Source: Actinomycetota bacterium
GTDB lineage: Bacteria > Actinomycetota > Thermoleophilia > Gaiellales > F1-60-MAGs149
Direction: 5' to 3'
DNA: 64,000 nucleotides
Assembly: GCA_009885805.1 (NCBI GenBank)
Contig: VFJZ01000007.1
Coordinates: 92,407 to 156,406, forward strand
The translations under genes and the position numbers were made by a program. Shown here one piece after another: positions 32,533 through 56,857 of the stretch; within the stretch, counting starts at the first letter, position 1, and each line of letters begins with the position of its first letter. Below the pieces are notes generated by a model. It saw only the letters and a program-made list of their open reading frames with translations, was not told where the DNA came from and did not search any database.

Positions 32533-32898
32533 ATGGAGCTGTTCGACGTCACGCAGAAAGCGCTCGAGGTCGCGCTGCACGGTACCGAGAAGCGGCAGTC
32601 CGTGATCGCGAACAACCTCGCGAACATCAACACGCCCGGCTTCAAGCGATCGGACGTGGAGTTCGGCGACGCGCTTGCCCAGGCACTCCAGTTCAGCGGC
32701 ACGGCCGAAGCCGTCGGCGCCGTCACCCCGATTGTCAAGACCGATAACGTCTCTTCGATGCGCGTCGACGGCAACAACGTCGACATCGATCGCGAGGCGT
32801 CGTACCTGGCTCAGAACCAGCTGCAGTTCTCCGCTCTCATGTCCGTCACGACCAAGAACCTGCAGACCATGTCCAACATCATCACGGGGGCGCGCTGA
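32533..32898 (+). CDS. flgB: Flagellar basal-body rod protein FlgB
   Basis: It has the rod N-terminal motif SVIANNLANINTPGFKR. GGAGG lies 5 nt upstream of ATG 32533; GTG 32527 is an alternative start. Confidence 0.85.
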   Translation: MELFDVTQKALEVALHGTEKRQSVIANNLANINTPGFKRSDVEFGDALAQALQFSGTAEAVGAVTPIVKTDNVSSMRVDGNNVDIDREASYLAQNQLQFSALMSVTTKNLQTMSNIITGAR

Positions 32899-33356: not shown

Positions 33357-33679
33357 TGGCTGTCGGACCGATCGCCGGCGTCGGGATCGACGCGATCCAG
33401 TTCTACCGCTCCCTGCCGTCCATCGGCGGGCCGGCCGCCGTCGGCGAGACGCCGGGCGCGCAGTCGTTCGGCGCCCTCATCGCCGACAAGCTCCAGGCCT
33501 CCGCCGCCATCCAGGGCCAGGGGGCGCAGGCCGCGCAGGCTCTCGCCACCGGCCAGGCGAACGACATCTCGGCCGCGACGATCGCCGTCGAGAAGGCCGC
33601 CATCGCACTTCAGCTCACCGCAGCGTTCCGGAACAAGGCCGTCGAGGCCTACCAGGACGTCATGCGGATGCAGATCTGA
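33356..33679 (+). CDS. fliE: Flagellar hook-basal body complex protein FliE
   Basis: ATG 33356 overlaps the flgC stop. The 107-aa product has the C-terminus AIALQLTAAFRNKAVEAYQDVMRMQI, typical of FliE. Confidence 0.8.
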   Translation: MAVGPIAGVGIDAIQFYRSLPSIGGPAAVGETPGAQSFGALIADKLQASAAIQGQGAQAAQALATGQANDISAATIAVEKAAIALQLTAAFRNKAVEAYQDVMRMQI

Positions 33680-33691
33680 CCCGGAGGCTCC

Positions 33692-35290
33692 ATGCAACTT
33701 CTCGGCATCGCAATCGACCGTCTCGGCACCGCCTCCCGCCTGATCGTGGGCCTGATCGCGCTCGCGACGATCGGCGTCATCGCGTACATCGTGATGAGCG
33801 CCGGCGGCGCGGCCTACACGCCGGCCTTCACGAACCTCGACGCCCGCAGCGCCGGCGAGGTGCAGGCGGCGCTCGCGGGGGCCGGCATCCCGACGAAGCT
33901 CGGCGAGGGCGGCGCGACCGTGATGGTGCCGTCGGCGAAGATCAACGAGGCCCGGGTCGTGGCCGGCAAGGCGGGCGTCGGCGGCGGCCGCGCCGACTGG
34001 TCGCTGCTCGACGAGAGCTCCCTGTCGATGACGGACGGCCAGTTCCACTACAAGGTGCAGCGCGTCCGCAGCGACGTGCTGGCGGCGCAGATCGAGAGCA
34101 TCGTCGGCGTCCGGCACGCCACCGTCAACCTGGCGATCCCCGAGCGCAGCATCTTCTCCGTCGACCAGGAGCAGGTGACCGCATCGATCAACATCGACAC
34201 CGGCGGCGGCGCCCTCACCGACACCGCCGTGCGCGGCATCATCTCGCTCGTCTCGAACGGCGTCCCGGGCCTCGTGCCCCAGAACGTCTCCGTCGTCGAC
34301 GAGCAGGGGCGGCCGCTCGCCAGCGCCACGACGTCGATCGGCCTTGCCAGCGCCGACCGCATGACGGCCGAGGCGACGTGGGAGGCGATGCAGTCGGCGA
34401 AGGCGCAGGCGATGCTCGACCGCATGCTCGGTCCCGGGAAGGGGAGCGTGGTCGTCGCCGGCGAGCTCAGCTTCGACGAGGTCACCACCAGCGCGCAGAC
34501 GTTCGGGGAGGACAAGGGCGCGATCCAGTCGGCCGACGAGGTTGAGAAGCTGATCCAGAAGGGCGGCGCGACCGGGGGGACGCCGGCCGGGACGGCCGGG
34601 AACATCCCCGGCGCGGCGACGGCGGCCGGTTCCGCGTCGTCGAGGTACGACCACACGCAGAAGACGGCGACGAACGCCATCGACACGACCCAGACCGAGA
34701 CGAAGACGGTCGGCGGCACGCCGACGCGGATGACGGTATCGGTCGTCGTCGACAAGGCGGCTCTGGCAGCGATCGGCGGCACCGCGCCCGAGCAGACGGT
34801 GGCGGACGCGATCGCGAACAGCGTCGGGCTGGATACGGCTAACGCCGCGAACAAGATCTCGGTGTCGGCGATCGAGAAGCTCCCCAACCCGATCGACGCG
34901 CTCAAGAAAGCGGGTGTCCCGCTGGTCGCGACGGGTGGCACCTCGAGCGCCGACGGGTCGGCGCTCGGCGGGCTCATCCCCGCCCCGTTCGGCGGGCTGC
35001 TGCAGCCCGTCGGGGCCGGTGTCGGCCTGCTGGTGATGCTCTTCCTCGTCCGCAAGTCGCTGGCCCGGCGCCAGGCGCTGCTCGGCGGCACCGACTCCTC
35101 GTGGCTGCCCGCGCTGGAGGCGCCGCCGATCAAGATCGACGACCTGATGCCGGCGCTCGGCGCTCCCAGCGCGGGCGAGATCCACGCCGCGGAGAAGAAG
35201 GCGCTGCAGGGTCGGGTCGAGGAGATCGCCCAGAACCGCCCCTCCGATGTCGCCGCTCAGATGCGCGGCTGGCTGACCGCCAAGGCGTAA
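33692..35290 (+). CDS. fliF: Flagellar M-ring protein FliF
   Basis: The 532-aa protein has an N-terminal TM, a YscJ/FliF domain and a second TM near the C-terminus. It sits between fliE and fliG. Confidence 0.9.
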   Translation: MQLLGIAIDRLGTASRLIVGLIALATIGVIAYIVMSAGGAAYTPAFTNLDARSAGEVQAALAGAGIPTKLGEGGATVMVPSAKINEARVVAGKAGVGGGRADWSLLDESSLSMTDGQFHYKVQRVRSDVLAAQIESIVGVRHATVNLAIPERSIFSVDQEQVTASINIDTGGGALTDTAVRGIISLVSNGVPGLVPQNVSVVDEQGRPLASATTSIGLASADRMTAEATWEAMQSAKAQAMLDRMLGPGKGSVVVAGELSFDEVTTSAQTFGEDKGAIQSADEVEKLIQKGGATGGTPAGTAGNIPGAATAAGSASSRYDHTQKTATNAIDTTQTETKTVGGTPTRMTVSVVVDKAALAAIGGTAPEQTVADAIANSVGLDTANAANKISVSAIEKLPNPIDALKKAGVPLVATGGTSSADGSALGGLIPAPFGGLLQPVGAGVGLLVMLFLVRKSLARRQALLGGTDSSWLPALEAPPIKIDDLMPALGAPSAGEIHAAEKKALQGRVEEIAQNRPSDVAAQMRGWLTAKA

Positions 35291-36346
35291 GTGGCCGACG
35301 CCGCCGCCACCGCCACGGTCGACGAACCCGGGGCAGCGCTGAACCTGTCGCCGCGCCGGAAGGCGGCGATCATGGCGGTCGCGCTCGGCCCGAGCCTATC
35401 CGCCGAGGTGTTCAAGCATCTCGCCCAGGACGAGGTTGACGAACTGGTGCTCGAGATCGCCGTGCTCGAGCAAGTCACGTCCGAGGAGCGCCAGGCAGTG
35501 ATGGAGGAGTTCTACGAGACGGCGCTCGCGCAGGACTTCATTGCGCAGGGCGGTGTCGGCTTCGCCAAGGACATCCTCGAGCGGTCGGTCGGCAGCGACA
35601 AGGCGATCGAGATCATGGGTCGTCTGTCGACATTCATCCACGTCACGCCCTTCGAGTTCCTACGGCGGATCGACCCCGTCCAGGTCTTCAACTTCCTCCA
35701 GCACGAGCACGGCCAGACGATCGCGCTCGTGCTCGCGTACCTGCCGGCCGACGCCGCCGCCCACGTGATGGGGATGTTCCCGCAGGACCTCCAGACCGAG
35801 GTCGCGATGCGCATCGCGGCGATGGACCGGACCGCTCCCGAGGTACTCCGCGAGGTCGAGACGGTGATGGAGCGCAAGCTCTCGAACCTGATCAACCAGG
35901 ACCTCGAAGCCGCTGGCGGGGTCAAGGCACTCGTCGACATCATGAACTTCTCCGACCGCGCGACCGAGCGCAACGTCCTCGAGTTCCTCGACGAGAAGGA
36001 CGCGGAGTTGGCGGACGAGGTGCGGAAGCTGATGTTCGTGTTCGAGGACCTCCTGATCCTGGACGCGAAGGCGATCCAGCAGCTCCTGAAGGAGGTCGAC
36101 ATGAAGGACATCGCGCTCGCCCTCAAGGGGTCGAACGAGGATGTCAAGGCGCTGATCTTCGCCAACATGTCGGCCCGCGCCGGCGCGATGCTGAACGAGG
36201 ACATGGAGTTCATGGGCCCGGTCAAGCGCCGCTCCGTCGAGGAGGCGCAGGGCCGGATCGTCGCGATCGTCCGGCGCCTCGAGGATTCGGGCAAGATCCA
36301 GATCGCGCGTGGCACGCAGGGCGCCGAAGACGAACTCGTGACGTAG
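35291..36346 (+). CDS. fliG: Flagellar motor switch protein FliG
   Basis: FliG motifs are present (KAAIMAVALG, EVRKLMFVFEDL, and a C-terminal torque-helix region). Confidence 0.9.
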   Translation: MADAAATATVDEPGAALNLSPRRKAAIMAVALGPSLSAEVFKHLAQDEVDELVLEIAVLEQVTSEERQAVMEEFYETALAQDFIAQGGVGFAKDILERSVGSDKAIEIMGRLSTFIHVTPFEFLRRIDPVQVFNFLQHEHGQTIALVLAYLPADAAAHVMGMFPQDLQTEVAMRIAAMDRTAPEVLREVETVMERKLSNLINQDLEAAGGVKALVDIMNFSDRATERNVLEFLDEKDAELADEVRKLMFVFEDLLILDAKAIQQLLKEVDMKDIALALKGSNEDVKALIFANMSARAGAMLNEDMEFMGPVKRRSVEEAQGRIVAIVRRLEDSGKIQIARGTQGAEDELVT

Positions 36347-36355
36347 CCGCAGCCC

Positions 36356-37072
36356 GTGCCCGAGAAGCGCATCATCGCCCGTGCGACGGCTGCCGGCTCC
36401 CGCCGGCTGCAGGTCGTGCCGCTCGAGACGCTGGCGGCGCCCGACGACGAGTCCGTCGGCGGGATCGCGACGTCCGCGCCACCGGCGACCGGCCTGAACG
36501 CGTTCCTGGCGACCGCCCAACGGCAGGGCGCGGCACTGGTCGAGGCGGCTCGTGAGCAGGCCGAGCAGATTGCCGCCACCGCCCGCGCCGACGGGTACGA
36601 AGTCGGTCAGCGGGAGGGGCGCGAGCAGGCGCTACGCGAGGTCGCAGATCTGCTGACGTTCGCGGAGGCAGCCGTCCGCGAGGTCGCGGACACGCGGGCA
36701 CGGCTGCTCGACGAATCCGAGACGGCGCTCGTCGCCCTCGCGATCCACGCCGCCGAAAAGATCCTCCACGCGACGCTCGAGGCGGAGCCGGAACGGGTCG
36801 CGGATGTGCTCCGTGGCGCGCTGCGCAAGGCGTACGTCCGCGACCAACTGCAGGTCGTCTGCAATCCCGACGACCTCGCCCTGCTCGAGGCGGCCTCTGA
36901 TGATCTGCGCACCAAGGTGGGCACGCTCAAGCATCTCGAACTGGTCGGTGACCGGCGGATCAGCCGCGGTGGCGTGATGGTGCGGACTCCCGGCGGCGAC
37001 GTCGACGGTCGGCTCGAGACCCAGCTCGACCGTCTGCGGCAGGCGATGCTGCGCGAGGAGAGCGATGCCTGA
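36356..37072 (+). CDS. fliH: Flagellar assembly protein FliH
   Basis: It has a coiled-coil region plus a FliH C-terminal domain (GGVMVRTPGGDVDGRLETQLDRL). It sits between fliG and fliI. Confidence 0.7.
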   Translation: MPEKRIIARATAAGSRRLQVVPLETLAAPDDESVGGIATSAPPATGLNAFLATAQRQGAALVEAAREQAEQIAATARADGYEVGQREGREQALREVADLLTFAEAAVREVADTRARLLDESETALVALAIHAAEKILHATLEAEPERVADVLRGALRKAYVRDQLQVVCNPDDLALLEAASDDLRTKVGTLKHLELVGDRRISRGGVMVRTPGGDVDGRLETQLDRLRQAMLREESDA

Positions 37073-38399
37073 CGCGATCCGGTCGCTGGCGCTCTACGCC
37101 GATCGCCTGAAGCACGCCGATCCGTACCGGACGATGGGCCGGGTCGCCGAGGTGATCGGACTGATCGTGGAGTCGACCGGCCCGGAGGCGGAAGTGGGGG
37201 AGCTGTGTCTCATCGGCTCCGACCGCCGGCCCCGGGTCCTGGCCGAGGTCGTCGGGTTCCGCGACGGCCGCACGCTGCTGATGCCCCTCGGCGAGCTCGG
37301 CGGCATCCGCCCCGGCGATCCGGTCGTCGGCGCCGGCCACGGACTGTCGACGCCGGTCGGTGACGTGGTCCTGGGCCGCGTGCTCGATGGCCTCGGCAAC
37401 CCGATCGACGACGGCGAGCCGCTCGACAGCGCTGGCCGCTACGTCGAGCGGCGCTCGCTCAGCTCGGCGCCGCCGTCGCCGATGCGTCGGCAACCGATCG
37501 ACCGTCGACTACCGCTCGGCGTCCGCGCGCTCGACGTGCTCGTGCCCTGTGGACGCGGTCAGCGGCTCGGAATTTTCGCCGGCTCCGGGGTCGGCAAGTC
37601 GACGCTCCTCGGCATGATCGCCCGCAACACCGAGGCCGACGTGACCGTGATCGGCCTCGTTGGCGAGCGCGGTCGCGAGGTCCGGGAGTTCGTCGACCGT
37701 GATCTCGGCCCTGCCGGCCTCGCACGCTCGGTGCTGTGCGTGGCGACCTCGGATCAGCCGGCGCTCGCCCGGATCAAGTGCGCCGAGACGGCGATGACGA
37801 TCGCCGAGGCCTTCCGCGACGAGGGCAAGGACGTCCTGCTCCTGATCGACTCCGTGACGCGGTTTGCGATGGCTCAGCGCGAGATCGGACTCGCGGTCGG
37901 CGAACCGCCGGCCAGCCGTGGCTACACGCCGAGCGTGTTCTCCGCCCTGCCGCGGCTGCTGGAGCGAGCCGGCACCGGAGTGCGCGGCTCGATCACCGCC
38001 CTGATCACCGTCCTCGTCGAGGGCGACGACATGAACGAGCCGGTCGCCGACGCCGTGCGAGGCATCCTCGACGGGCACCTCGTGCTCGACCGCGCGCTCG
38101 CGCACCGCAATCACTATCCGGCGATCGACGTCCTCGCGTCGGTGTCACGGCTGACACCGGCGATCACGACCGTCGCCGCCCGTGAGGCCGCCGGGCGGCT
38201 GCGCGAGCTGCTTGCGTTGCACCGCTCGAAGGAGGATCTGATCTCCATCGGCGCCTACGCTCGCGGCTCGGACCCCCGGCTCGATGAGGCGATCGACCTG
38301 ATCGCGCCGATCGAGGCCTTCCTGCGCCAGGGAGCAGACGAGGCCGAGCAGCCGGAGATCGCCGAACGGCGCCTGGCGAACCTCCTCGGAATGAACTGA
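37065..38399 (+). CDS. fliI: Flagellum-specific ATPase FliI
   Basis: Walker A GSGVGKST and Walker B LLLIDSVTR are present. Overall it resembles an F1/T3SS ATPase. Confidence 0.92.
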   Translation: MPDAIRSLALYADRLKHADPYRTMGRVAEVIGLIVESTGPEAEVGELCLIGSDRRPRVLAEVVGFRDGRTLLMPLGELGGIRPGDPVVGAGHGLSTPVGDVVLGRVLDGLGNPIDDGEPLDSAGRYVERRSLSSAPPSPMRRQPIDRRLPLGVRALDVLVPCGRGQRLGIFAGSGVGKSTLLGMIARNTEADVTVIGLVGERGREVREFVDRDLGPAGLARSVLCVATSDQPALARIKCAETAMTIAEAFRDEGKDVLLLIDSVTRFAMAQREIGLAVGEPPASRGYTPSVFSALPRLLERAGTGVRGSITALITVLVEGDDMNEPVADAVRGILDGHLVLDRALAHRNHYPAIDVLASVSRLTPAITTVAAREAAGRLRELLALHRSKEDLISIGAYARGSDPRLDEAIDLIAPIEAFLRQGADEAEQPEIAERRLANLLGMN

Positions 38400-38482
38400 A
38401 CTACTCCAGAAAATATGTCTTTCAACCGATATAGATACTGGCTACGGATGGCCGCGCCGACCTTCGCGTCGCAGCCATCCCC

Positions 38483-38944
38483 ATGAAACGCTTCCGCTTC
38501 ACCCTCGAGACCGTCCGCGACCTCCGCGACGACCGTCAGACGGCCGCGATGCTCGTCCTCGCCGACCGGATCCGGACGCACGGACACGCACAGTCCGCCG
38601 CGGAGGCGTCACTGCGTCGGCATCGCCGGGCCCAGCAGGCGCTGGCCGGGGCAGGCCGTGCCGCTGCGATGCTCGTGCAGGCCGATCGGGACCGGGACGC
38701 CGCCAGGCTGTCGCTCGAGTCGTCCGCGATCGACCTGCGAGAGACCACCTTCGGGGTCGACGCCGCCCGTGACGATCTGGTCGAGGCGCGCCAGGCGCTG
38801 GAGCGAGTCACCCACCTGGAGGCGCACCGCCGCGCCGATCACCGCCGCCGACAGCTGGCCGAGGAGGAGCGCGAGCTCGCGGAGATGACCGAGGCCCGGA
38901 GGGCGCGCGCAGCCGCGATGGCGCGGCGTGGAGTGCTGCGATGA
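38483..38944 (+). CDS. fliJ: Flagellar export chaperone-like protein FliJ
   Basis: The 153-aa coiled-coil protein starts MKRFRFTLETV and sits immediately after fliI. Confidence 0.65.
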   Translation: MKRFRFTLETVRDLRDDRQTAAMLVLADRIRTHGHAQSAAEASLRRHRRAQQALAGAGRAAAMLVQADRDRDAARLSLESSAIDLRETTFGVDAARDDLVEARQALERVTHLEAHRRADHRRRQLAEEERELAEMTEARRARAAAMARRGVLR

Positions 38945-39969
38945 GTGTTGCCGAGGCCCTCTCCCGCGTCACCGCGATCCAGGCGCGCATCGCCACCATC
39001 GCCCCGCGACCGGCGCCGCCGCCGTCCCCGCCGACCCCGACCTTCGGCGCGATGCTGCAGGGCGAGGCCGCGATCGGGGGCGCCGGGCTCGTTCCCGTCG
39101 GCGCCGGCGGCGCGAGTCTCGGCGAGCCGTCGCAGTTCGACGCGCTGATCGTGCAGGCGGCGCAGGAGGCCGGTGTCCCGCCAGCGCTCGTCAAGGCGGT
39201 GGCGAAGGCCGAGTCCGGTTTCAATCCCGGCGCTGTGTCACCGGCCGGAGCCTCCGGACTGATGCAGCTGATGCCCGGAACCGCGCGCGGGCTCGGTGTC
39301 ACCGATCCGTTCGACCCCCTTCAGAGTCTGCGCGGCGGCGCCCGCTATCTCCGCGCCCAGCTCGACCGCTTCGGCGGTGACCCGTCGCTGGCGCTCGCGG
39401 CCTACAACGCCGGCCCAGGCGCGGTCGCCAAGTACGGCGGCATCCCGCCGTACGCCGAGACGCAGGCGTACGTGCCTCGCGTTCTCGGTTACTTCCAGCA
39501 GTTCGGCGGTGCGTCGGCCACCGCGGCGCCGGCCGCGACGCCGGGCGCCAGCCCCGCGTTCGGCGCCGAGGCGGCGCTGCCATTCACGCTCGCCGGCGGT
39601 GCCTCGGTCGGCGGTGAGGTCGTGCGACGCGGGATGGAGCATCTCGGCACCCCCTACGTGTGGGGTGGCGAGCAACCCGGCGGCTTCGACTGTTCGGGCC
39701 TGGCGCAATACCTCTACGGCCAGCAGGGCGTGCAGATGCCGCGGGTCTCCCAGGACCAGTTCCGCGCCGGCCGGAGCGTCCCGACCAACCAGATGCAGCC
39801 GGGCGACCTCGTCTTCTTCTCGAAGAACGGTGACGTCCATCACATGGGCATCTACATCGGTGGCGGGCGGTTCCTGCACGCGCCTCGCACCGGCGATGTC
39901 GTGAAGATCTCAGCCCTCTCCGAACCGCACTACGCCCGCGAGTTCGCGGGTGCGCGGCGGTACGCGTGA
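38941..39969 (+). CDS. Bifunctional peptidoglycan hydrolase: SLT lytic transglycosylase domain fused to an NlpC/P60 endopeptidase domain
   Basis: SLT motifs are AESGFNPGAVSPAGASGLMQLMP and AAYNAGPGAV. NlpC/P60 motifs are GTPYVWGG...FDCSGL, GDLVFF and HHMGIYIGGGRFLHAP. Its ATG overlaps the fliJ stop. Confidence 0.8.
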   Translation: MSVAEALSRVTAIQARIATIAPRPAPPPSPPTPTFGAMLQGEAAIGGAGLVPVGAGGASLGEPSQFDALIVQAAQEAGVPPALVKAVAKAESGFNPGAVSPAGASGLMQLMPGTARGLGVTDPFDPLQSLRGGARYLRAQLDRFGGDPSLALAAYNAGPGAVAKYGGIPPYAETQAYVPRVLGYFQQFGGASATAAPAATPGASPAFGAEAALPFTLAGGASVGGEVVRRGMEHLGTPYVWGGEQPGGFDCSGLAQYLYGQQGVQMPRVSQDQFRAGRSVPTNQMQPGDLVFFSKNGDVHHMGIYIGGGRFLHAPRTGDVVKISALSEPHYAREFAGARRYA

Positions 39970-39990
39970 GGCAATCGAGGAGGAGAGGAG

Positions 39991-41280
39991 GTGATTTCCA
40001 TGACAGATACCCCAATCACAACGACGGCCCCCGGCGGTCTGATCGCGGCCATCGTCGCTGCCCCTGAGGCAGCGGTCGAGGCGGTCGATGACAGCGGTGG
40101 CCTGGCGACGGCGTTCTCTACGCTGCTCGACTCCCTGGCGACCTCGCCAGCGACCGTCGGCGGCGTCGACGTCGAGGCTGCGGCCGAGGCTGAGGCCGAG
40201 GCCGCGGCCGAGACGGAAGGTGGGGATGAAGCGGTCGCCGCGACGGTGGCCGGGTTCGCCGTTCCCATGCCCGTCACCCTGCCGTTCAGTCCGGTGCCCG
40301 TGACGGCTCCGGTCGTTGCGGAGACGATCGAGGCACCGATCGCGGCCGTGGCGGCGGGCGCGCTGCCTCCGGTTCCGGTCACCACCGGCGCCGAGGGCGA
40401 GCCCGACACGCCACCGCCGGCCGTCGTTCCGGTCACGACCGGATCAGTGACAGCCGAGCGGCACGCGACGGTCGAGCGGCCCGCGACGATCGCCATGCCC
40501 GACGCCCCGATCGACGAGGCGATCGTGCAGGCGGCAATCGCTGCCGTCGCGACGACGGCGAAGCCTGAGCCGTCGACGCGTCCGCGCCGAAACGGCGATG
40601 CGGTCAGTTCGCGTCCGTCAGAGACGGCGACGGCGACGGCGACGGCGACGGTTCCGTCCGCGCCACCGGCCGCGGCACCCGTCGCCCCGGCGGCGGCAAG
40701 GGTGCCGACCGACCAGCCGAAGGACGGTCAGGACAACGGGAGGCCCGCGCCTCCGGCCGACCCGCTCGCCGGAGTCCTGGTCGACCGGCGCGGGCTCACG
40801 ACGACAGACACGACGTCGGCGCCCCCGTCCGCGATCGAGACGATCGACCGCGAGCGGATCGAGCGGCTCGCGGAGGGGCTCGCCGTTCGCCTGCGCGCGT
40901 CGCAGGCGTCGGACGGTGCACGCATCCGCATGCTGCTCGAACCGCGTGAGCTCGGCGAGGTGATCATCCGGCTCGACATCCGCGACGGCGTCGCTCAGGC
41001 ATTCCTGACGGCGGAGTCGCACGAGTCGGCGAAAGCCCTGCAGGCCGCGCTCGGTGACCTGCGGACAGCTCTGGCCGATCGTGGCCTGAACCTCGAGCGG
41101 ATCGACGTTCGCGTCGCCGGCGACGGCGCCCGCGAGGGTGTTAGGGACGGCGCGGCCGACGCACGCCACGGCCGCTCGGCCCACCACTCCAGCGGCTCGG
41201 CGGTCGAGGAGACCGAAATGGACGGAACGACCCAGACCGACGCGAGCATCAGCGGCCACGCCGTGTGGATACTCGCCTGA
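39991..41280 (+). CDS. fliK: Flagellar hook-length control protein FliK
   Basis: A long Ala/Pro/Thr/Glu-rich low-complexity N-terminal part is followed by a Flg_hook-type C-terminal domain (IRMLLEPRELGEVIIRLDIRDGVAQAFLTAES...LQAALGDLRTALADRGLNLERIDV). Confidence 0.7.
   Translation: MISMTDTPITTTAPGGLIAAIVAAPEAAVEAVDDSGGLATAFSTLLDSLATSPATVGGVDVEAAAEAEAEAAAETEGGDEAVAATVAGFAVPMPVTLPFSPVPVTAPVVAETIEAPIAAVAAGALPPVPVTTGAEGEPDTPPPAVVPVTTGSVTAERHATVERPATIAMPDAPIDEAIVQAAIAAVATTAKPEPSTRPRRNGDAVSSRPSETATATATATVPSAPPAAAPVAPAAARVPTDQPKDGQDNGRPAPPADPLAGVLVDRRGLTTTDTTSAPPSAIETIDRERIERLAEGLAVRLRASQASDGARIRMLLEPRELGEVIIRLDIRDGVAQAFLTAESHESAKALQAALGDLRTALADRGLNLERIDVRVAGDGAREGVRDGAADARHGRSAHHSSGSAVEETEMDGTTQTDASISGHAVWILA
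40624..40651 (+). repeat. (ACGGCG)4 plus a partial unit: in-frame hexanucleotide microsatellite (Thr-Ala)n inside fliK
   Basis: The tandem repeat was read directly from the sequence. It translates to TATATATAT. Confidence 0.9.
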
Positions 41281-41324
41281 TCGCCCGTGCAACCACCAGA
41301 CAAGACACGAGAAAGGAGGTAGTG

Positions 41325-41744
41325 ATGCCCAACCCCGTCAGCAGTACCAGCCCGGTGTTCGGCGGTCCCGGTAGCCCGGGGACGGTCGAACGTGCCGACT
41401 CGTCCGGATCGTGGGGCGGCGACACGTTCCTCCGGCTCCTGATGGCGCAGATGACGCATCAGGATCCGCTCGCGCCGACCGATTCGGCGCAGATGCTGAC
41501 GCAGCTCGCCCAGTTCGCGAACGTCGAGGGCGTCAACAAGCTCAACACGCAGGTCACCGCGCTCAACCTCGGGCAGGACTTCGCGGCCGCAGTCTCGATG
41601 ATCGGGAAGTCGGTCACGTGGCTCGACGACGAGGGCGCAACCCGGACCGGCATCGTGCAGGGCGTCAAGCCGAGCCCGACCGGCGCCGTGCTCGTGATCG
41701 ACGGCGAGGATGTCCCCTCCGGCTTCGTGCAGAGGGTGGAGTAG
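41325..41744 (+). CDS. flgD: Flagellar hook capping/assembly protein FlgD
   Basis: ATG 41325 follows GAAAGGAGG. The FlgD motif is FLRLLMAQMTHQDPLAPTDSAQMLTQLAQF. Confidence 0.8.
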   Translation: MPNPVSSTSPVFGGPGSPGTVERADSSGSWGGDTFLRLLMAQMTHQDPLAPTDSAQMLTQLAQFANVEGVNKLNTQVTALNLGQDFAAAVSMIGKSVTWLDDEGATRTGIVQGVKPSPTGAVLVIDGEDVPSGFVQRVE

Positions 41745-41746
41745 CG

Positions 41747-42124
41747 GTGGATCCGCGCCTCTCACCCGTCTCGCGCGCCGGCGGTCTGACAGCGCTCGGG
41801 GTCGCCGCTCCCGTTGCCCCCGCTCCGCGGACCGACGGTCCAACGTTCGCCGAGACGCTCGGCGGCCAACTCGGCGTCCGCTTCTCGGCGCACGCCGAGG
41901 CTCGCCTGCAGAGCCGTGGTCTCTCGTTCGACTCCAGCCAGCTCGAACGGCTGTCGTCGGGCGTCGACGCCGCCGCCGCCAAGGGCAGCCGCGAGGCGCT
42001 CGTCCTCCTCGACGAGGTCGCGATGGTCGTCGCGGTGCGCAACCGCACCGTCGTCACCGCCGTCCCGCGCGAGGAAGCCTCGCAATCCGTGTTCACCAAC
42101 ATCGATACCGCCGTCATCACCTGA
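41747..42124 (+). CDS. Flagellar operon protein of the TIGR02530-like family (located between flgD and flgE)
   Basis: The motifs VRFSAHAEARLQSRGL...AAAKGSREALVLLDEVAMVVAVRNRTVVTAV...VFTNIDTAVI match the family as I recall it. It is positioned as in clostridial and spirochaetal operons. Confidence 0.6.
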   Translation: MDPRLSPVSRAGGLTALGVAAPVAPAPRTDGPTFAETLGGQLGVRFSAHAEARLQSRGLSFDSSQLERLSSGVDAAAAKGSREALVLLDEVAMVVAVRNRTVVTAVPREEASQSVFTNIDTAVIT

Positions 42125-42214
42125 CGACGCGACTCCGGCTGGACCGCGACGACACCGTCGTCCGGAGGTCGGTTGGGACCCGCCCGAAGTGCGGGCCCGA
42201 AGGAGGAAATCCCA

Positions 42215-43120
42215 GTGCTCCGTTCCATGTTCACCGCCATCGGCGGACTCCGAAATCACCAGGTCATGCTCGACGTGACCGCCAACAACATCGCCAACGT
42301 CAACACCGTCGGTTACAAGTCGCAGCGCATCGCGTTCGAGTCGATGATGGCGCAGGTGCTGCGCGGTGCCGCATCGCCGGTCGCCGGTCAGAGCGGCGGC
42401 TCCGGTCCGACCGAGGTCGGCCTCGGCATGACGATGAACTCGATCGGCTCCGTCATGACGCAGGGGTCGCTGCAGACCACGGGTCAGTGGTCGGACATCG
42501 GCATCAACGGCGACGGCTACTTCATGGTCGGTACGTCGCTCAACGCCTCGAACCTCGTCCAGGCGACGTCGCAGGTCCAGTTCACCCGGGCCGGCAACTT
42601 CACGGTTGACAAGGACGGCTTCCTCGTCGACCAGCACGGCGGCTTCATCCTCGGCCTGCAGGCGCCGCCGCCGCCGCAGACACCGCCGGTGGCGTTCGGT
42701 ACGACGCTCGGCGGCCTGAAGCTGCCGAACGGCGCGACCAGCGTCTCGATCGACCAGAACGGCGTCGTCAGCTACGACCTGAACGGTCGGCAGCTGCTGG
42801 GGCAGATCCAGCTGGCGAAGTTCCCGAACCCCGCTGGCCTCTCCCGCGTCGGGGCGAACAACCTCGAGGATACGCCGAACTCCGGCATCTTCGACGCGAC
42901 CGACCCGACCGGCGTCACGGGTGGCGGCAACGTCGTCTGGGGCGCTGCCAACACGACCGGCATCGGCTCGCTCGCGTCGGGCGCGCTGGAGATGTCGAAC
43001 GTCGACCTCGCGCTCGAGTTCACGAACATGATCGTCGCGCAGCGTGGCTTCCAGGCCAACACGCGCGTGATCACCACCTCCGACGAGGTCCTGCAGGAGC
43101 TCGTCAACATCAAGCGCTGA
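42215..43120 (+). CDS. flgE: Flagellar hook protein FlgE (short, ~301 aa)
   Basis: GTG 42215 follows GAAGGAGGA. The N-terminus reads LRSMFTAIGGLRNHQVMLDVTANNIANVNTVGYK. The C-terminus reads LEMSNVDLALEFTNMIVAQRGFQANTRVITTSDEVLQELVNIKR. Confidence 0.8.
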   Translation: MLRSMFTAIGGLRNHQVMLDVTANNIANVNTVGYKSQRIAFESMMAQVLRGAASPVAGQSGGSGPTEVGLGMTMNSIGSVMTQGSLQTTGQWSDIGINGDGYFMVGTSLNASNLVQATSQVQFTRAGNFTVDKDGFLVDQHGGFILGLQAPPPPQTPPVAFGTTLGGLKLPNGATSVSIDQNGVVSYDLNGRQLLGQIQLAKFPNPAGLSRVGANNLEDTPNSGIFDATDPTGVTGGGNVVWGAANTTGIGSLASGALEMSNVDLALEFTNMIVAQRGFQANTRVITTSDEVLQELVNIKR

Positions 43121-43162
43121 TCGAGGACCTGTCGGGTGCTCAGCGGCGTTCTCATGCTCATC

Positions 43163-43199
43163 GCGCGCTCCCGCCGCCAGTTGGCGGCGGGAGACGCGC
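43163..43199 (+). terminator. Strong stem-loop after flgE (11-bp perfect core CTCCCGCCGCC/GGCGGCGGGAG with loop AGTT, extendable to ~16 bp with one bulge); possible attenuator or processing site
   Basis: The inverted repeat was read directly. It lies in the 174-nt flgE-flbD spacer. No U-tract follows it. Confidence 0.4.
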
Positions 43200-43294
43200 T
43201 CGAGGTCGCGGCGCGCGCGCGGAGCGTCCGCAAGACGCTGCACCGTCCACCGGACTTCCGTCACAAGCTGCTGAATCGCGAGGAGAATCGCGCC

Positions 43295-43504
43295 ATGATC
43301 AAGCTCCACCACGGCCGCGAAGGTCGCGAGATCTGGGTCAACGCCGACCTGATCGAGACCGTCGAGGCCACGCCCGACACCGTCGTCAAGCTCACGACCG
43401 ATCGGCGGATGATCGTCACGGAGACGCCCGAGGAGCTCGTCGCCCTCGTGGTCGAGATGAAGCGCAGGGCGGAAAATCGTCCTCATGTCATTTCCGACCG
43501 TTGA
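43295..43504 (+). CDS. flbD: Flagellar protein FlbD
   Basis: The 69-aa product reads MIKLHHGREGREIWVNADLIETVEATPDTVVKLTTDRRMIVTETPEELV, which matches the FlbD family pattern. GAGGAG lies upstream. Confidence 0.75.
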   Translation: MIKLHHGREGREIWVNADLIETVEATPDTVVKLTTDRRMIVTETPEELVALVVEMKRRAENRPHVISDR

Positions 43505-43554
43505 CGATAGAACGCAAGTACTCTCGTCTACCTTTTTTGAGTCACAAGTAGCCA

Positions 43555-44370
43555 GTGGATCCCGGAACCATCATCGGCCTCGTCCTCGGTATCGTCGCGG
43601 TGTTCGTCGCCATGATTCTCGAGGGTGGCAACCCGGCCGCCTTCATCCTGCCGTCGCCGCTCGTGCTGGTCATCTTCGGCACGCTCGGCGTGACCATGGC
43701 GTCGACGGGGCTGAAGGCGTCGCTGCGCATCCCGGGCCTGTACATCAAGGCGATGACGGGGAAGCCACCGAGTCGTCCGGACGCGATCAAGGCGCTCGTG
43801 AAGATGGCCGAGCGCGCCCGTCGCGAGGGCCTGCTGGCACTGGAGGAGGAGGCCGAGGTCGTCGAGGAGCCGTTCCTCGCGCGGGGTCTGCGGCTGGTCA
43901 TCGACGGCACCGATCCCGAGCTCGTCAAGGACATCCTCGATCTCGATGTCGAAGCGATGGCCGGCCGCCACCACGAGAGCGCCGCCCTCTTCACGCACGC
44001 CGCCGGCTTCGCACCGACGATCGGCATCATCGGGACGGTGATGGGACTCGTCCACGTGCTCGAGAACCTGTCGAACCCGGCCGCGCTCGGCCCGGCGATC
44101 GCCGCCGCCTTCATCGCGACGTTCTTCGGGGTCGCGTCGGCGAACCTGATCTACCTGCCGGTCGCGAACAAGCTGAAGGAGCTGTCGACCCACGAGGCCG
44201 ACGCCCGGACGATGATGATCGAGGGGATCCTCTCGATCCAGGCGGGCGACAACCCTCGCATCGTCGAGGAGAAGCTGAAGACGTTCCTGGAGCCGTCGGA
44301 GCGCAAGCACTTCGAGGCTCAGGACGACGCGGCGTCCGGCGGCGCCGAGGACCAGAAGAAGGCCGCGTAG
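43555..44370 (+). CDS. motA: Flagellar stator protein MotA
   Basis: The MotA/TolQ/ExbB-type channel protein has 4 TM segments. Conserved motifs are APTIGIIGTVMGL and FIATFFGVASANLIYLP. Confidence 0.85.
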   Translation: MDPGTIIGLVLGIVAVFVAMILEGGNPAAFILPSPLVLVIFGTLGVTMASTGLKASLRIPGLYIKAMTGKPPSRPDAIKALVKMAERARREGLLALEEEAEVVEEPFLARGLRLVIDGTDPELVKDILDLDVEAMAGRHHESAALFTHAAGFAPTIGIIGTVMGLVHVLENLSNPAALGPAIAAAFIATFFGVASANLIYLPVANKLKELSTHEADARTMMIEGILSIQAGDNPRIVEEKLKTFLEPSERKHFEAQDDAASGGAEDQKKAA

Positions 44371-44371
44371 C

Positions 44372-45283
44372 ATGGCGCGGAAACGCGTACACGAGCATGC
44401 CGACGAACGCTGGCTGCTGACCTACGCGGACATGATCACGCTGCTGATGGCGCTGTTCATGGTGCTGTTCAGCATGGCAGTCGTCAACAAGGGCAAGTTC
44501 GACGAGCTGGCGCGCTCCCTGAAGGAGAGCTTCTCCGGGCCGCTCGGGCCGGGTGGCGACTCGATTCTCAGCGTTGGTGCGCCGATCCCGGCCCCGAACG
44601 ACACACCGCAGCCCGACCCGCTGCCGCCGATTGCGGAGGGGTCGAAGCCGCCTGCGCCGGCCGAGACGGAGGAGACGAAGCGCGCGCTCGAGAGCGCCCG
44701 CGTCGCGGCCCAGCTGCAGGACAACAGCCTCAAGGACGCCAAGGCACGCATCGATGCGAGGGTCGACGAGATCGGGCTCCAGGATCAGGTGGAGACGCAG
44801 ATCCTGGCGGAGGGGCTTGTCATCCGCCTGCTCACGGACAACGTCCTATTCGATGTCGGCTCCGCGACGATCCGCTCCGGGACCGGGCCGCTGCTGGAGG
44901 CGGTCGCGCAGGCGATCAACGCCGTCGGCGACAACCCGATCCGGGTCGCCGGACACACCGACGCGATTCCGTTCGCCGGCAACCCGCACGGCAACGATCA
45001 GCTGTCGGCCGACCGTGCGGTTGCGGTCTACAGCTACCTCGTCGACCACGGCCTGTCCGAGGAGGCGCATCCCGACCTGGGCTTCGAGGGCTTCGGCGAG
45101 CGGCGCCCTCTCACCCCAAACGACCCGAAGACCGGTGCCGGCCGGCGCAACCGGCGCGTCGAGGTGCTGGTGAAGAAGATCGACTACGTCGGCGAGGCGC
45201 AGTCTGCCGCCACCGGCGCGCTCGGGACGAACGCGGTTGGCATTCCGCAGATCACGCCTGCGGCCCCTCAGATCCACCCGTGA
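44372..45283 (+). CDS. motB: Flagellar stator protein MotB (OmpA-like C-terminal domain)
   Basis: The N-terminus WLLTYADMITLLMALFMVLF carries the conserved Asp. The C-terminal OmpA-like motif is GHTD...N..LSADRA. Confidence 0.85.
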   Translation: MARKRVHEHADERWLLTYADMITLLMALFMVLFSMAVVNKGKFDELARSLKESFSGPLGPGGDSILSVGAPIPAPNDTPQPDPLPPIAEGSKPPAPAETEETKRALESARVAAQLQDNSLKDAKARIDARVDEIGLQDQVETQILAEGLVIRLLTDNVLFDVGSATIRSGTGPLLEAVAQAINAVGDNPIRVAGHTDAIPFAGNPHGNDQLSADRAVAVYSYLVDHGLSEEAHPDLGFEGFGERRPLTPNDPKTGAGRRNRRVEVLVKKIDYVGEAQSAATGALGTNAVGIPQITPAAPQIHP

Positions 45284-45286
45284 TCT

Positions 45287-45294
45287 GCCGATAA
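45287..45294 (+). promoter_or_regulatory. Perfect sigma-28 -10 consensus octamer GCCGATAA, 24 nt upstream of the fliL ATG
   Basis: The octamer was read directly. The matching -35 (TAAA expected near 45268) is poor (TCAG). Confidence 0.3.
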
Positions 45295-45317
45295 CACGCT
45301 CTGAAAGCGATACGACC

Positions 45318-45836
45318 ATGGTCAAGAAGATTCTCCCCATCGTGCTCGGATTGATCGTCGCCGGCGGCGGCTACTTCGCGTACACGAAGTTCCTCGCCGG
45401 CGGTGGCCCGACCGAGACACCCGTGCAGGCGCAGGCCCGCACGGTCAAAAAGGACGCTGCCGCGAAGAAGAAGCGGCTGAAGGACAAGGTCCACGGTCAC
45501 ATCTACTCGCTCGGTGACACGTTCGTGATCACGCTCGCCGATCCCGGCGTGAAGGCGTTCGCGAAACTCGACGTCTCGCTCATGGTCGACGCCGACACGC
45601 CGGTGGCGGCCGCCGGGGCGCACGGCCCGACCGGCCCGCCGGCCCTCGAGGAGCAGATCGAGTTGCGCGACCTGCTGATCGATGTCGTCTCCAGCCATTC
45701 GGCCGACGAGATGACCTCGGCGGAGGGGCGTCATGCGGTGAAGGAGGCGATCATCGAGGCCGCCAACGAAAAGCTGCCGAAGACGGTCGTGCTCGAGGTC
45801 TTCTTCTCCAACGTCGCAGTACAGCTGGTCACCTGA
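45318..45836 (+). CDS. fliL: Flagellar basal body-associated protein FliL
   Basis: It has an N-terminal TM (KKILPIVLGLIVAGGGYFAY) and a FliL-like C-terminal domain. It follows motB. Confidence 0.7.
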   Translation: MVKKILPIVLGLIVAGGGYFAYTKFLAGGGPTETPVQAQARTVKKDAAAKKKRLKDKVHGHIYSLGDTFVITLADPGVKAFAKLDVSLMVDADTPVAAAGAHGPTGPPALEEQIELRDLLIDVVSSHSADEMTSAEGRHAVKEAIIEAANEKLPKTVVLEVFFSNVAVQLVT

Positions 45837-46639
45837 TGGCCGACGGCCCTCTCGACCAGGATGCCATCGAGGCGCTGATCGCCCAGCAGGCGGCCGAGGC
45901 CGCTGGCGCCGGGGCGGCGGATGATGCCGCGGACGTCGTCGACGAGCCCCCGGCTGCGTCAGGCAGTGGGACGATGTCCGCCGACGACATCGCGGCGCTG
46001 ATCGCCGCGGAGGCGGCGGCCGGTGACGAGGCCGGCGATGCTGACCCGATCGAGGCGGAGATCGTCGCGGAGGAGGTCACGGAGGCCGAGCCAGCCGCTG
46101 CCGGCGGCGGATCGCTGTCGGCGGACGAGATCGCGGCGCTGATCGCGGGTGAGGAGTCCGCGGTCGCGGAGCTCCCGGCCGACGTCGAGGACGCCCCGGC
46201 TGCGGGCGGCGGGTCGCTCTCCGCGGACGAGATCGCCGCGCTGATCGCGGCCGAAGCCGACGACGCGGACGCCGGAGGCTTCACGGCGGCCGCCGTTCCC
46301 GCGCTGATTGGAGGGCCGGTCGTCGAGGACGTCGTCTACGCCGAGCTGCCACCGGTTCACGCACCGCTTGAGGAGATCGCGGAGATCGACCTCCTGCTCG
46401 ATGTCCCGCTCCGGATCACGGTCGAGCTCGGTCAGGCGTCGAAGACGATTCGGGAGCTGCTCGAGCTCGGACAGGGATCAATTCTGCACCTCTCCCGCCA
46501 CGCCGGCGAACCGGTCGACGTGCTCGTGAACGGGCAGCATATCGCTCGCGGTGAGGTGGTCGTGATCGATGAGAACTTCGGCATTCGCGTGACCGAGGTC
46601 GTCGCTCCTGCCGACCGGCTGCGGACCATGGCCGTCTGA
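45836..46639 (+). CDS. fliN: Flagellar motor switch protein FliN-like, with a ~150-aa acidic N-terminal extension carrying four CheY-docking-type motifs
   Basis: The C-terminal SpoA/FliN domain reads LLLDVPLRITVELGQASKTIRELLELGQGSILHLSRHAGEPVDVLVNGQHIARGEVVVIDENFGIRVTEV. The N-terminal motifs are described in the findings. Confidence 0.8.
   Translation: MADGPLDQDAIEALIAQQAAEAAGAGAADDAADVVDEPPAASGSGTMSADDIAALIAAEAAAGDEAGDADPIEAEIVAEEVTEAEPAAAGGGSLSADEIAALIAGEESAVAELPADVEDAPAAGGGSLSADEIAALIAAEADDADAGGFTAAAVPALIGGPVVEDVVYAELPPVHAPLEEIAEIDLLLDVPLRITVELGQASKTIRELLELGQGSILHLSRHAGEPVDVLVNGQHIARGEVVVIDENFGIRVTEVVAPADRLRTMAV
45851..46249 (+). repeat. Four copies of a 33-nt coding motif (LDQDAIEALIA, MSADDIAALIA, LSADEIAALIA, LSADEIAALIA) at 45851, 45974, 46115 and 46217; the last two sit in ~51-nt near-identical direct repeats (46100..46150 and 46202..46252)
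   Basis: The copies were read directly from the sequence and its translation. Confidence 0.9.
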
Positions 46640-47145
46640 TGCGGCGCCTGCTCGCGCTGGCGATCGGTGTCCTGCTCGTCGTGGCCGCGCCGGCGTCTGC
46701 CGTCGGTGAGACCGAGCTCGCAAACCTCGGCGACGGTGGTCCGGCGACGACGACCGTACCCGGATCGGGGGTCGCCGACATCGGTCGTCTCCTGCTCGGC
46801 CTCGTGCTGGTCGTGCTCGTGATCGGCGCGCTGTACGCCGGCCTGAAGCGCGTCCAGCACGGACGCCTACCTGGTAGCCGGTCGACGCGTGGAGACGGAT
46901 CCGTCGAGGTCCTGTCGACGACCGCGCTCGGGCCCGGTCGCAATCTGCACCTCGTGCGCGTCGGCGAGGGGGTCTTGCTCGTCGGGGCGAGCGAGCAGTC
47001 GGTGAACCTGTTGCAGAGCTACGATCGTGACGAGGCAGCCGCGGCGGGTCTGGTCGAGATCGAGCCGCCGGCGATCGCCGAGGTGCACGAACTCGACGTG
47101 CCGCGCACGTTCGTCGACGCGCTGCGCGAGCGCACGCTCAGATAG
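46639..47145 (+). CDS. fliO: Flagellar biosynthesis protein FliO/FliZ-like
   Basis: It has a signal-like N-terminus, a single TM (LLLGLVLVVLVIGALYAGL) and a conserved tail (LSTTALGPGRNLHLVRVGEGVLLVGASEQSVNLL). It follows fliN. Confidence 0.65.
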   Translation: MRRLLALAIGVLLVVAAPASAVGETELANLGDGGPATTTVPGSGVADIGRLLLGLVLVVLVIGALYAGLKRVQHGRLPGSRSTRGDGSVEVLSTTALGPGRNLHLVRVGEGVLLVGASEQSVNLLQSYDRDEAAAAGLVEIEPPAIAEVHELDVPRTFVDALRERTLR

Positions 47146-48085
47146 CGGCGGCGAGGGCGCGGTCGGCGCCCATCGCCGCGAACAGCAGCGCCAGGTACAG
47201 CAGCGAGTAGAGGAACGTCGCCCGTGCGACGAGCCTCGAGTGCGTACGCAGCAGGCGGACGGCGAGTTGCATGAAGCGCGCGCCGAGGGCGACGGCCGCG
47301 ATCGCGTAGACGATGCCGAGCAGACCGGTCGCGACGGGGATCAGGGAGACGACCGCGAGGGCGACCGTGTAGGCGAGTATCTGCACGGCTGTCTCGCGCT
47401 CGCTGGCGACGACCGGGAGCATCGGCACGCCCGCGTTGGCGTACTCGTCGCGCTTCAGGATCGCGAGCGCCCAGAAGTGCGGCGGCGTCCACAGGAAGAT
47501 GATCAGGAACATGACGAGTGGCGCGAGGCCGACGTCACCGGTCACGGCGGCCCAGCCGGCCAGCGGCGGAATCGCGCCGGCAGCACCGCCGATCACGATG
47601 TTCTGCGGGGTGCGGCGCTTGAGCAGCATCGTGTAGACGACGACGTAGAAGGCGCTCCCGCCGAGCGCGAAGGCCGCGGTCAGGACGTTCGTGAACGCGA
47701 GCAGCAGGATCGCAGCGGCGACGTTCAGCAACAGTCCGAGCACGGTCGCGGCGGGTGCCGAGACGCGACCGTCCGCGACCGGTCGCTGTCGCGTGCGCTC
47801 CATCAACCGGTCGATGTCGCGGTCGAGCACGTGGTTCAGGACCGCGCCACCGCCCGAGGCGAGGGCGAGGCCCGCCAGCGTGGCCAGGGCGATGCCGACC
47901 GGCGGCACGCCCTCGGCCGCCCACACCATTGCGCCGGCTGCCGTGACGAGGACGAGGAGCGCGATGCGGGGCTTGGTCAGCTCCCACAGGTCGGCGAGCA
48001 GGGACCGACGCACCTCGACCAGATGGGCGGCGTCAGCGGCCACGGGATCGGCGGTCGAGACGGGTGGAGTGGTGGCGGCGCACAT
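47138..48085 (-). CDS. ctaB: Protoheme IX farnesyltransferase (heme O synthase)
   Basis: The UbiA-family motifs NHVLDRDIDRLMERTRQRP and a second Asp-rich region are present, along with ~9 TM segments. Confidence 0.9.
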   Translation of the reverse strand: MCAATTPPVSTADPVAADAAHLVEVRRSLLADLWELTKPRIALLVLVTAAGAMVWAAEGVPPVGIALATLAGLALASGGGAVLNHVLDRDIDRLMERTRQRPVADGRVSAPAATVLGLLLNVAAAILLLAFTNVLTAAFALGGSAFYVVVYTMLLKRRTPQNIVIGGAAGAIPPLAGWAAVTGDVGLAPLVMFLIIFLWTPPHFWALAILKRDEYANAGVPMLPVVASERETAVQILAYTVALAVVSLIPVATGLLGIVYAIAAVALGARFMQLAVRLLRTHSRLVARATFLYSLLYLALLFAAMGADRALAAAI

Positions 48086-56852: not shown

Positions 56853-56857
56853 GTCGT

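Follow-up and report, generated by a model that had tools for sequence, protein, structure and literature searches.

A FliN-type flagellar protein with repeated EIDAL-type peptides and no neighbouring fliM in uncultured Thermoleophilia

As a textbook ultrasensitive device, the flagellar switch is usually described as receiving its input through one docking peptide for phosphorylated CheY (CheY-P) per FliM. FliY of Bacillus subtilis and Thermotoga maritima (model NF005995) combines an N-terminal CheY-P-binding EIDAL peptide with a CheC-like phosphatase domain and a SpoA domain, and canonical FliN has a short N-terminal extension and no EIDAL array. Here we describe a 267-amino-acid (aa) FliN-type protein from the flagellar gene cluster of an uncultured lineage of Thermoleophilia (Actinomycetota), encoded in a 64-kb stretch of contig VFJZ01000007.1 (the window, meaning the whole stretch that was analysed). 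Like FliY, this window FliN bears an EIDAL-type peptide at its extreme N-terminus and a SpoA domain at its C-terminus, and its gene stands at the same place in the operon, behind fliL/fliM and ahead of fliO(fliZ)/fliP. Unlike FliY, it is without the CheC-like domain, it has four functional-looking peptides instead of one, and fliM is not adjacent. In contrast to canonical FliN, it has a 185-residue tail with four motifs and a fifth, degenerate one. The motifs share the consensus (LSQxEIDALL), the helical propensity and the acidic context of the FliM N-terminal peptide, but they are found on FliN, in multiple copies and with no FliM middle domain behind them.

The EIDAL peptide was already known on FliY and, sporadically, on FliN; the loss of the CheC-like domain and the lineage-specific amplification of the docking helix are new. 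Passages of Henderson et al. 2020 (PMC6946799) report that some FliN and FliY proteins have EIDAL motifs, full or degenerate, and that fliM, fliN and fliY are variably co-located. These passages describe single EIDAL motifs only, whereas the window FliN has a tandem array, and no report of tandem EIDAL arrays was found in the literature searched. On the whole, the best explanation, which we hold to be probable though well short of certain, is a CheC-less FliN of FliY descent with a multivalent CheY-P docking tail, in a lineage whose FliM is encoded elsewhere.

Domain content and repeated peptides of the window FliN

Sequence comparison identifies the 267-aa protein as a FliN-type C-ring subunit, whose SpoA domain, by homology, builds the base of the C-ring. 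PF01052 (FliMN_C) is its sole Pfam domain (aa 186-256; E 3.2e-25; 88.3 bits against a cutoff of 23.8), and the protein passes the NCBIfam FliN model TIGR02480 with 103.1 bits (cutoff 84.05). In the PDB, T. maritima FliN (1o6a/1yab) and the FliN of the Salmonella C-ring (8umd) match residues 181-265 only (E 7e-28). These limits agree with the original prediction, made from the bare sequence, that FliN/SpoA homology is confined to the C-terminal ~90 of the 267 aa. The protein therefore has what defines a FliN, namely a SpoA domain scoring above curated cutoffs and a position in a flagellar operon. It shares the N-terminal EIDAL peptide (motif 1) with FliY, but no Pfam or NCBIfam match to a CheC-type middle domain was obtained. 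The FliY model NF005995 is the top NCBIfam match of the SpoA domain; it aligns with the protein only over model positions 293-376, its C-terminal 84, and at 121.8 bits the match stays below the cutoff of 218. The middle domain with the GGXG FliG-binding motif that characterizes FliM (PF02154) is missing. The FliM model TIGR01397 matches solely via the SpoA part (30.5 bits; cutoff 219.6), and the alignment of a FliM hidden Markov model (HMM) is restricted to model positions 256-328. PF28396, which is listed for all homologues, was considered as a named N-terminal family and rejected; it is SepQ_C, in weak overlap with the SpoA domain. SRA run SRR8670876 yielded an independent 902-bp contig that encodes an identical 267-aa protein, so the open reading frame (ORF) is not an assembly artefact.

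The SpoA domain is preceded by a tail of ~170 residues, which sequence, conservation and structure prediction show to be disordered and extremely acidic, with four short amphipathic helices of the form L-S-x-D/E-E-I-x-A-L-I/L and one decayed copy. Residues 1-150, described in the original prediction as acidic and Ala-rich, consist of 32.7% Ala and 24.7% Asp+Glu, have no Lys, Arg or His, and carry a net charge of -37; the G+C content of the window is 70.6%. The four 11-residue motifs that had been proposed there lie at exactly the predicted coordinates (Table 1). Motif 4 is separated from the SpoA domain by only ~45 residues, and its L136 is nearly invariant in an alignment of 44 sequences. In the degenerate fifth copy, which is visible at the DNA level and does not figure in the original prediction, the first Leu and the Leu of A-L are gone. 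AlphaFold2 (AF2), supplied with the 44-sequence alignment, predicted four helices with block values of the predicted local distance difference test (pLDDT) of 76-90, and the linkers between them were below 50.

The motifs were scored with a log-odds position-specific scoring matrix (PSSM) and controls, instead of a 16-column EIDAL HMM in HMMER, whose scores were uninformative at such short length. The PSSM was trained on 94 distinct N-terminal peptides of FliM proteins encoded in outgroup and metagenome loci, and these genuine FliM N-termini scored a minimum of 10.9 bits and a median of 32.6 bits. Three of the window motifs (17.2, 15.2 and 15.2 bits) exceed the weakest genuine peptides, and motif 2 reaches 7.9 bits. 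A score of at least 7.9 bits was found in 3 of 18,505 sequence windows in the other 58 proteins of the window, and 110 of 20,000 shuffles of aa 1-160 reached it even once. The EIDAL consensus and a predicted helix thus coincide in the array overall, copy 2 and the degenerate fifth copy being weak. Their sequences mark the four motifs as genuine, conserved EIDAL-type peptides of the FliM/FliY N-terminal type. The best EIDAL-PSSM match outside FliN in the window (15.9 bits) is VSQDELLALLS in a FapA/DUF342-family protein (28433-30178) encoded upstream of the flagellar cluster, at aa 96-106 (29861-29893, minus strand) and at the start of FapA_N; it may be a chance match or a shared docking motif.

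The DNA of the array retains a record of duplication. Copies 3 and 4 had been placed in ~51-nt near-identical repeats, and the repeats at 46097-46148 and 46199-46250 are indeed 90% identical and 102 nt apart, within two tandem units. Over the first 51 nt, the units differ at five positions, all of them synonymous third-position changes, and encode 17 identical aa (AAGGGSLSADEIAALIA). Over the next 51 nt they have diverged, with 17 of 51 positions identical. Five synonymous and zero non-synonymous changes beside diverged flanks are, at the sequence level, the pattern expected of purifying selection after duplication.

Homologues and the location of fliM

EIDAL-type motifs are a general feature of the closest relatives of the window FliN. 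We surveyed the best 120 matches, almost all from soil metagenomes and long-read metagenome-assembled genomes (MAGs), with a regular expression and found the motif in 117 of them; one copy is present in 54, two in 49, three in 13 and four in one, with three homologues having none. The four-copy homologue (P0001) is 248 aa long and 55% identical to the window FliN. Many copies in the homologues are nearer the canonical sequence, including LSQDAIEALL, LSQEEIEKLL and LSQEDIEALL. The 44-sequence alignment reveals conserved N-terminal and SpoA-proximal copies, joined by linkers that vary in length and sequence. The survey of copy number suggested along with the original prediction therefore yields one to four copies in nearly all relatives, and the concern that the region might be unconserved low-complexity sequence does not apply.

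Internal copies are more alike within one protein (0.82-1.0 identity) than between lineages (0.49-0.62). Copy 2 is the same as copy 1 in the group of P0055, and copies 2-4 of the window FliN resemble the SpoA-proximal copy. This likeness within proteins, together with the differing routes of expansion, suggests that the arrays expanded separately in several lineages. Among 1.84 billion representatives, an exhaustive HMMER search returned 15,563 matching proteins. Among the best 150 of these 50%-identity representatives, 77 have no motif, 66 have one and six have two, and only P0001 has more; three of the six reflect the start of the CheC domain of FliY. Judged by these motif counts, arrays of at least three copies are confined to the window clade among the best 150 representatives.

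The window has no fliM gene. When all six-frame stop-to-stop ORFs were searched, filters off, with an HMM of 12 outgroup FliMs, no FliM middle domain was detected in the window, and the only match was the FliN ORF, through its SpoA domain. Pfam scans of 58 window genes gave no match to PF02154, and both searches bear out the original prediction that no frame of the window holds a FliM-like ORF. The fliL-fliN-fliO order is repeated in nine related loci (L001-L007, L070 and L071; ~165 kb), in one of which, L071, a brkB-family gene lies between fliN and fliO, and the same HMM found no FliM middle domain in any of them. By contrast, a strong FliM match (score >100) adjoins fliN/fliY in 55 of 61 loci that were retrieved with FliN and classed as outgroups. 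The closest genome-collection relative has a second flagellar locus with fliPQR, flhB, flhA, flhF, a sigma factor gene and a PilZ gene, which was found by walking from FlhA and contains no fliM. This locus, seen in L070 (18801-20925), lies ~30 kb from fliN on the same contig as L007, on the opposite strand, with an acetyltransferase gene after fliR. At its right end (61100-63513) the window shows synteny with the edge of the relative's second locus, at 76% amino-acid identity, so a second flagellar locus probably lies just beyond the window.

Some of the related contigs should be read with care. In the long-read MAG contigs L003, L004 and L005 (ENA ERZ250394xx/ERZ250395xx), frameshifts split many flagellar genes, with fragments of FlhB, FlhA, FliI, FlgE and PhoD as examples, probably through long-read indel errors, and gene-presence calls from these contigs need corresponding caution. 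Two unannotated ORFs upstream of fliP in L005 were considered as a divergent FliM and rejected as frameshifted PhoD fragments.

The metagenome searches aimed at fliM did not reach the genomes of the window clade. A GC-biased DNA pattern for the FliM sequence YDF[RK][RK]P..K.S.[RK][ED][QH], scanned against JGI metagenomes, returned 120 loci, nearly all with a clear FliM, and none was assignable to the window clade. Tetranucleotide signatures separate Thermoleophilia poorly from Micromonosporaceae, and the FliM contigs are not classifiable by them. A Patulibacter-like fliN-fliM order among these 120 loci was found only in an unrelated locus. L176, the locus with the flagellar proteins most similar to those of the window (FliG 64%, FliI 62% and MotA 53%), was considered as a locus of the clade and rejected as Armatimonadota; its FliM, used as a protein query, retrieved only Armatimonadota, Firmicutes and Spirochaete FliMs and none on the long contigs of the clade. 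The Armatimonadota flagellar proteins of L176 and L074 are as similar to those of the window as the proteins of other Thermoleophilia are, so taxon can hardly be read here from the percent identity of flagellar proteins. Micromonosporaceae and many high-GC Actinomycetia-like contigs have a FliM without the N-terminal EIDAL peptide, in which the HMM alignment starts at position 22-33 (loci L038-L040, L043, L049-L056, L058 and L069; from metagenomes, e.g., L093, L112, L126, L153 and L162). The FliN of these lineages (~250 aa) also has no EIDAL.

FlhA relatives bear the names Gaiellaceae and Solirubrobacteraceae and L007 is labelled as Actinomycetes, which puts the window lineage in Thermoleophilia. 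In this class, fliM is documented as lying apart from fliN. Table S2 of PMC10746217 gives a FliM of 308-343 aa for each of its 13 cultured Thermoleophilia, and in Conexibacter, Solirubrobacter, Baekduia, Patulibacter and Thermoleophilum the FliM gene is off the fliL-fliN position. It lies six or seven genes beyond fliN in Conexibacter, far away in Solirubrobacter pauli (RS27150, with fliN at RS11040), upstream of motA in Baekduia, after fliN in Patulibacter and next to fliI in Thermoleophilum. Gaiella has the order fliM, one gene, fliN, and Miltoncostaea has fliM directly before a 370-402-aa FliN/FliY. Conexibacter, Solirubrobacter, Baekduia and Thermoleophilum have the same fliL-fliN-fliO junction without fliM as the window, but their FliN proteins measure 119-139 aa, compared with 146-269 aa and one to four motifs in the window clade. 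PMC10746217 employs FliM as a universal marker and does not discuss its displacement in the tabulated Thermoleophilia. L071, a Solirubrobacter-like MAG locus, reproduces the S. pauli gene order of this table, likewise without a local fliM. At 5208-6533 it encodes a 113-aa FliN with no EIDAL motif and a BrkB-family membrane protein before fliO, which fits the locus-tag spacing of S. pauli (PMC10746217). The window FliG has retained E139-H-G-Q and, downstream, the Arg of the EHPQR motif that binds FliM. Its aa 139-142 (35705-35716) read EHGQ in place of the canonical EHPQ, an unusual Pro-to-Gly change. By analogy with the cultured relatives, fliM is most probably present in the window lineage and encoded elsewhere in the genome.

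Origin and possible role of the putative docking tail

The array may have arisen by domain loss and duplication from a FliY-type protein. The ancestor would have had an EIDAL peptide, a CheC-like phosphatase domain and a SpoA domain, a layout still present in Firmicutes and, by length, in Miltoncostaea. FliY ancestry is suggested because the SpoA domain matches the FliY model best, because Firmicutes have the order fliM-fliY and because fliM of Miltoncostaea stands beside its long FliN/FliY. In our Firmicutes outgroup loci, fliM is followed by a ~400-aa fliY with an N-terminal LSQEEIDALL, a CheC-like domain and a SpoA domain. The CheC-like domain would then have been lost and the peptide kept, after which the docking helix would have been duplicated repeatedly and independently in the window clade. 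The cultured Solirubrobacterales may have gone further, to a short FliN, and the 113-aa FliN of L071 is motif-less. The original prediction was of a multivalent array moved onto FliN. The repeated EIDAL-type peptides are genuine by the sequence evidence and their multiple copies unusual, but the idea of a move is not supported; an N-terminal EIDAL is ancestral to FliY-type proteins and is already present in Firmicutes FliY beside fliM, so loss of a FliY domain followed by duplication is the simpler account.

The sequence is best read as encoding a multivalent tail for CheY-P docking at the C-ring base. Each helix may, like FliM-N and FliY-N, dock CheY-P on its alpha4-beta5-alpha5 face. Because no C-ring subunit is more abundant than FliN, the tails could offer several hundred tethered CheY-P sites per ring. 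Such sites would capture CheY-P and raise its local concentration, and would then hand it to the switch (FliM/FliG) or buffer it. Without a phosphatase domain in cis, the dephosphorylation of CheY-P would fall to free CheC/CheD. The chemosensory class of Thermoleophilia is F1, which is Bacillus-like and includes CheC, CheD and CheY (PMC10746217).

Several observations weigh against this docking role. The window motifs fall in the low tail of genuine FliM-N scores, and motif 2 has only 7.9 bits. They depart from the EIDAL consensus in having Ala or Gln at position 3, Ala or Glu instead of Asp at position 7 and Ile for the last Leu. Of these, the replacement of Gln by Ala at position 3 counts against docking, as does the Ala in copies 2-4 at the place of the Asp that presumably pairs with CheY Lys119 in Escherichia coli (structure 1F4V). 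No cheY gene is present within the window, and no fliM was shown in any genome of the window clade despite the scans of loci and the metagenome searches. The cis role of the FliY peptide, feeding CheY-P to the phosphatase, has gone with the CheC-like domain, and the present role is one that we infer. In addition, FlhG binds motifs of this class in other bacteria (PMC12826062). We also consider it possible, but unlikely, that the CheY-P receptor function rests mainly or solely on FliN, with a FliM that is EIDAL-less, as in Actinomycetia-type FliMs, or absent.

A different partner for the helices seems improbable. The foremost candidate is the MinD-like ATPase FlhG, and the array would then serve assembly or patterning instead of chemotaxis. 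FlhG uses the N-terminal peptide of FliM/FliY in delivering building blocks of the C-ring and in controlling how many flagella there are and where they are placed, but we know of no use that it would have for multivalency. In B. subtilis the binding partner of FlhG is FliY and not FliM, in polar flagellates it is the N-terminus of FliM (PMC12826062), and a gene for FlhF (SRP54-type) follows flhA in L070. However, no MinD/ParA-type gene follows flhF in L070 or L071, where the next ORFs have no Pfam match. The FlhG and CheY-P roles of the array are not mutually exclusive.

As to origin, we give little credence to the alternative that the gene is the remnant of an in-frame fusion or deletion between fliM and fliN which kept the FliM N-terminal peptide, with a second fliM elsewhere and maybe the same function. 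Such an event would account for the absence of fliM exactly at this junction and for an EIDAL peptide at the same offset as in FliM (residues 5-16). However, FliY proteins have their own N-terminal EIDAL at that offset, and no residual FliM-like sequence lies behind motif 1. Moreover, in cultured Solirubrobacterales the same fliL-fliN junction goes with a short FliN (119-130 aa), and fliM has moved at full length, a sign of translocation and not deletion (PMC10746217 Table S2).

Complete loss of FliM is very unlikely. It would leave the FliN tail as the sole CheY-P receptor of a re-modelled switch, or a motor that no longer switches, and to our knowledge FliN alone has no way of attaching to FliG. 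The tight fliL-fliN-fliO order with its overlapping stop and start codons would agree with loss, as would the lack of a FliM middle domain in the 64-kb window and in the nine related loci, including the second flagellar locus, when outgroup loci so commonly have fliM beside fliN. Against this stand the FliMs of all the cultured Thermoleophilia in Table S2, often encoded far from fliN, the S. pauli-like gene order of L071 and the retention of EHGQ and the downstream Arg in FliG. The FliM-less or modified switch raised in the original prediction is thus not supported in that form: fliM is indeed absent between fliL and fliN here and in nine related loci, but with FliM in all 13 tabulated cultured Thermoleophilia a motor without FliM is unlikely. 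Finally, it is highly improbable that the N-terminal region is an acidic low-complexity spacer that replication slippage produced in GC-rich DNA, with motifs that have no specific partner; its extreme composition (33% Ala, 25% Asp+Glu), its widely variable copy number and linker length and its decayed copy would suit a spacer, but conservation has already largely refuted it, the motif and not the linkers being kept in homologues, copies 3 and 4 differing by synonymous changes only, shuffles of the same composition almost never yielding one match and AF2 predicting the helices confidently.

The flagellar cluster and the meaning of the array for the switch

The flagellar cluster of the window occupies 32527-47145 on the plus strand and ends with fliL-fliN-fliO (Table 1). 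The TGATG overlap between fliL and fliN that had been read from the sequence is present, and a second TGATG joins fliN to fliO. An ORF at 43485-44420 without a Pfam match was rejected as a gene, being a shadow frame of the real motA. Between fliJ and fliK, a 342-aa fusion of an SLT lytic transglycosylase and an NlpC/P60 endopeptidase is encoded (38941-39969), in a position that is kept in relatives; it is probably a peptidoglycan-remodelling enzyme for rod insertion, analogous to FlgJ/CwlQ. After fliO, the cluster is broken by UbiA, ABC-2 transporter, GcvT, cytochrome oxidase and other genes (47138-64000). Outside the cluster, a plus-strand ORF (27372-28397) encodes two HNH/homing-endonuclease-associated repeats (PF18780, E 5e-31). 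It shares ~320 nt with the 5' end of a murT-like gene (26173-27690, minus strand), and the gene boundaries here should be taken with care.

Table 1. Features of the flagellar cluster and of the fliN-type gene, in window coordinates
Feature	Position	Strand	Evidence and remarks
Upstream part of cluster: flgB, flgC, (fliE), fliF, fliG, fliH, fliI, fliJ, SLT+NlpC/P60 hydrolase, fliK, flgD, TIGR02530, flgE, flbD, motA, motB, fliL; no fliM	32527..45836	+	Pfam, NCBIfam
TIGR02530 gene	41747..42124	+	NCBIfam
motA	43555..44370	+	NCBIfam
fliL, stop overlapping fliN start (TGATG 45834-45838)	45237..45836	+	Pfam FliL PF03748, E 4.9e-16
fliN-type gene, 267 aa: acidic, predicted disordered tail with EIDAL-type array, then C-terminal SpoA	45836..46639	+	Translation, Pfam, NCBIfam; MAD..L[SD]Q start common to homologues
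Motif 1, LDQDAIEALIA, aa 6-16, at extreme N-terminus as in FliM/FliY	45851..45883	+	PSSM 17.2 bits; AF2 helix 8-24, pLDDT ~90; conserved in most homologues
Motif 2, MSADDIAALIA, aa 47-57	45974..46006	+	PSSM 7.9 bits; AF2 helix 49-61, pLDDT ~86; DNA repeat family D2, 77% identity
Degenerate fifth copy, GDADPIEAEIV, aa 67-77	46034..46066	+	DNA repeat family D1; low pLDDT, no predicted helix
Motif 3, LSADEIAALIA, aa 94-104	46115..46147	+	PSSM 15.2 bits; AF2 helix 96-107
Motif 4, LSADEIAALIA, aa 128-138, SpoA-proximal	46217..46249	+	PSSM 15.2 bits; AF2 helix 130-144, pLDDT ~85; kept in nearly every homologue
Two 102-nt (34-codon) tandem duplication units	46097..46198 and 46199..46300	+	DNA repeat analysis
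SpoA/FliMN_C domain, aa 186-256	46391..46603	+	Pfam PF01052, PDB matches
fliO, start overlapping fliN stop (TGATG 46637-46641), last flagellar gene of cluster	46639..47145	+	Pfam FliO PF04347
UbiA-family gene, 3' of fliO	47138..48085	convergent to fliO	Pfam UbiA PF01040

The array bears on how the flagellar switch receives its signal. A FliN with two to four selected peptides and no phosphatase domain would alter the number, the position and the tethering geometry of the CheY-P sites. If the receptor function does rest on FliN, CheY-P capacity and cooperativity would be far from the 34-site FliM model, with several hundred helices at four per FliN. The lineage would thereby offer a natural experiment on site number and local concentration in relation to motor sensitivity, on the role of the FliY peptide once it is uncoupled from dephosphorylation, and on the expansion of short linear motifs in bacterial signalling proteins. 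The displacement of fliM in Thermoleophilia from its very conserved place beside fliN also bears on automated calls of missing core flagellar genes in MAGs.

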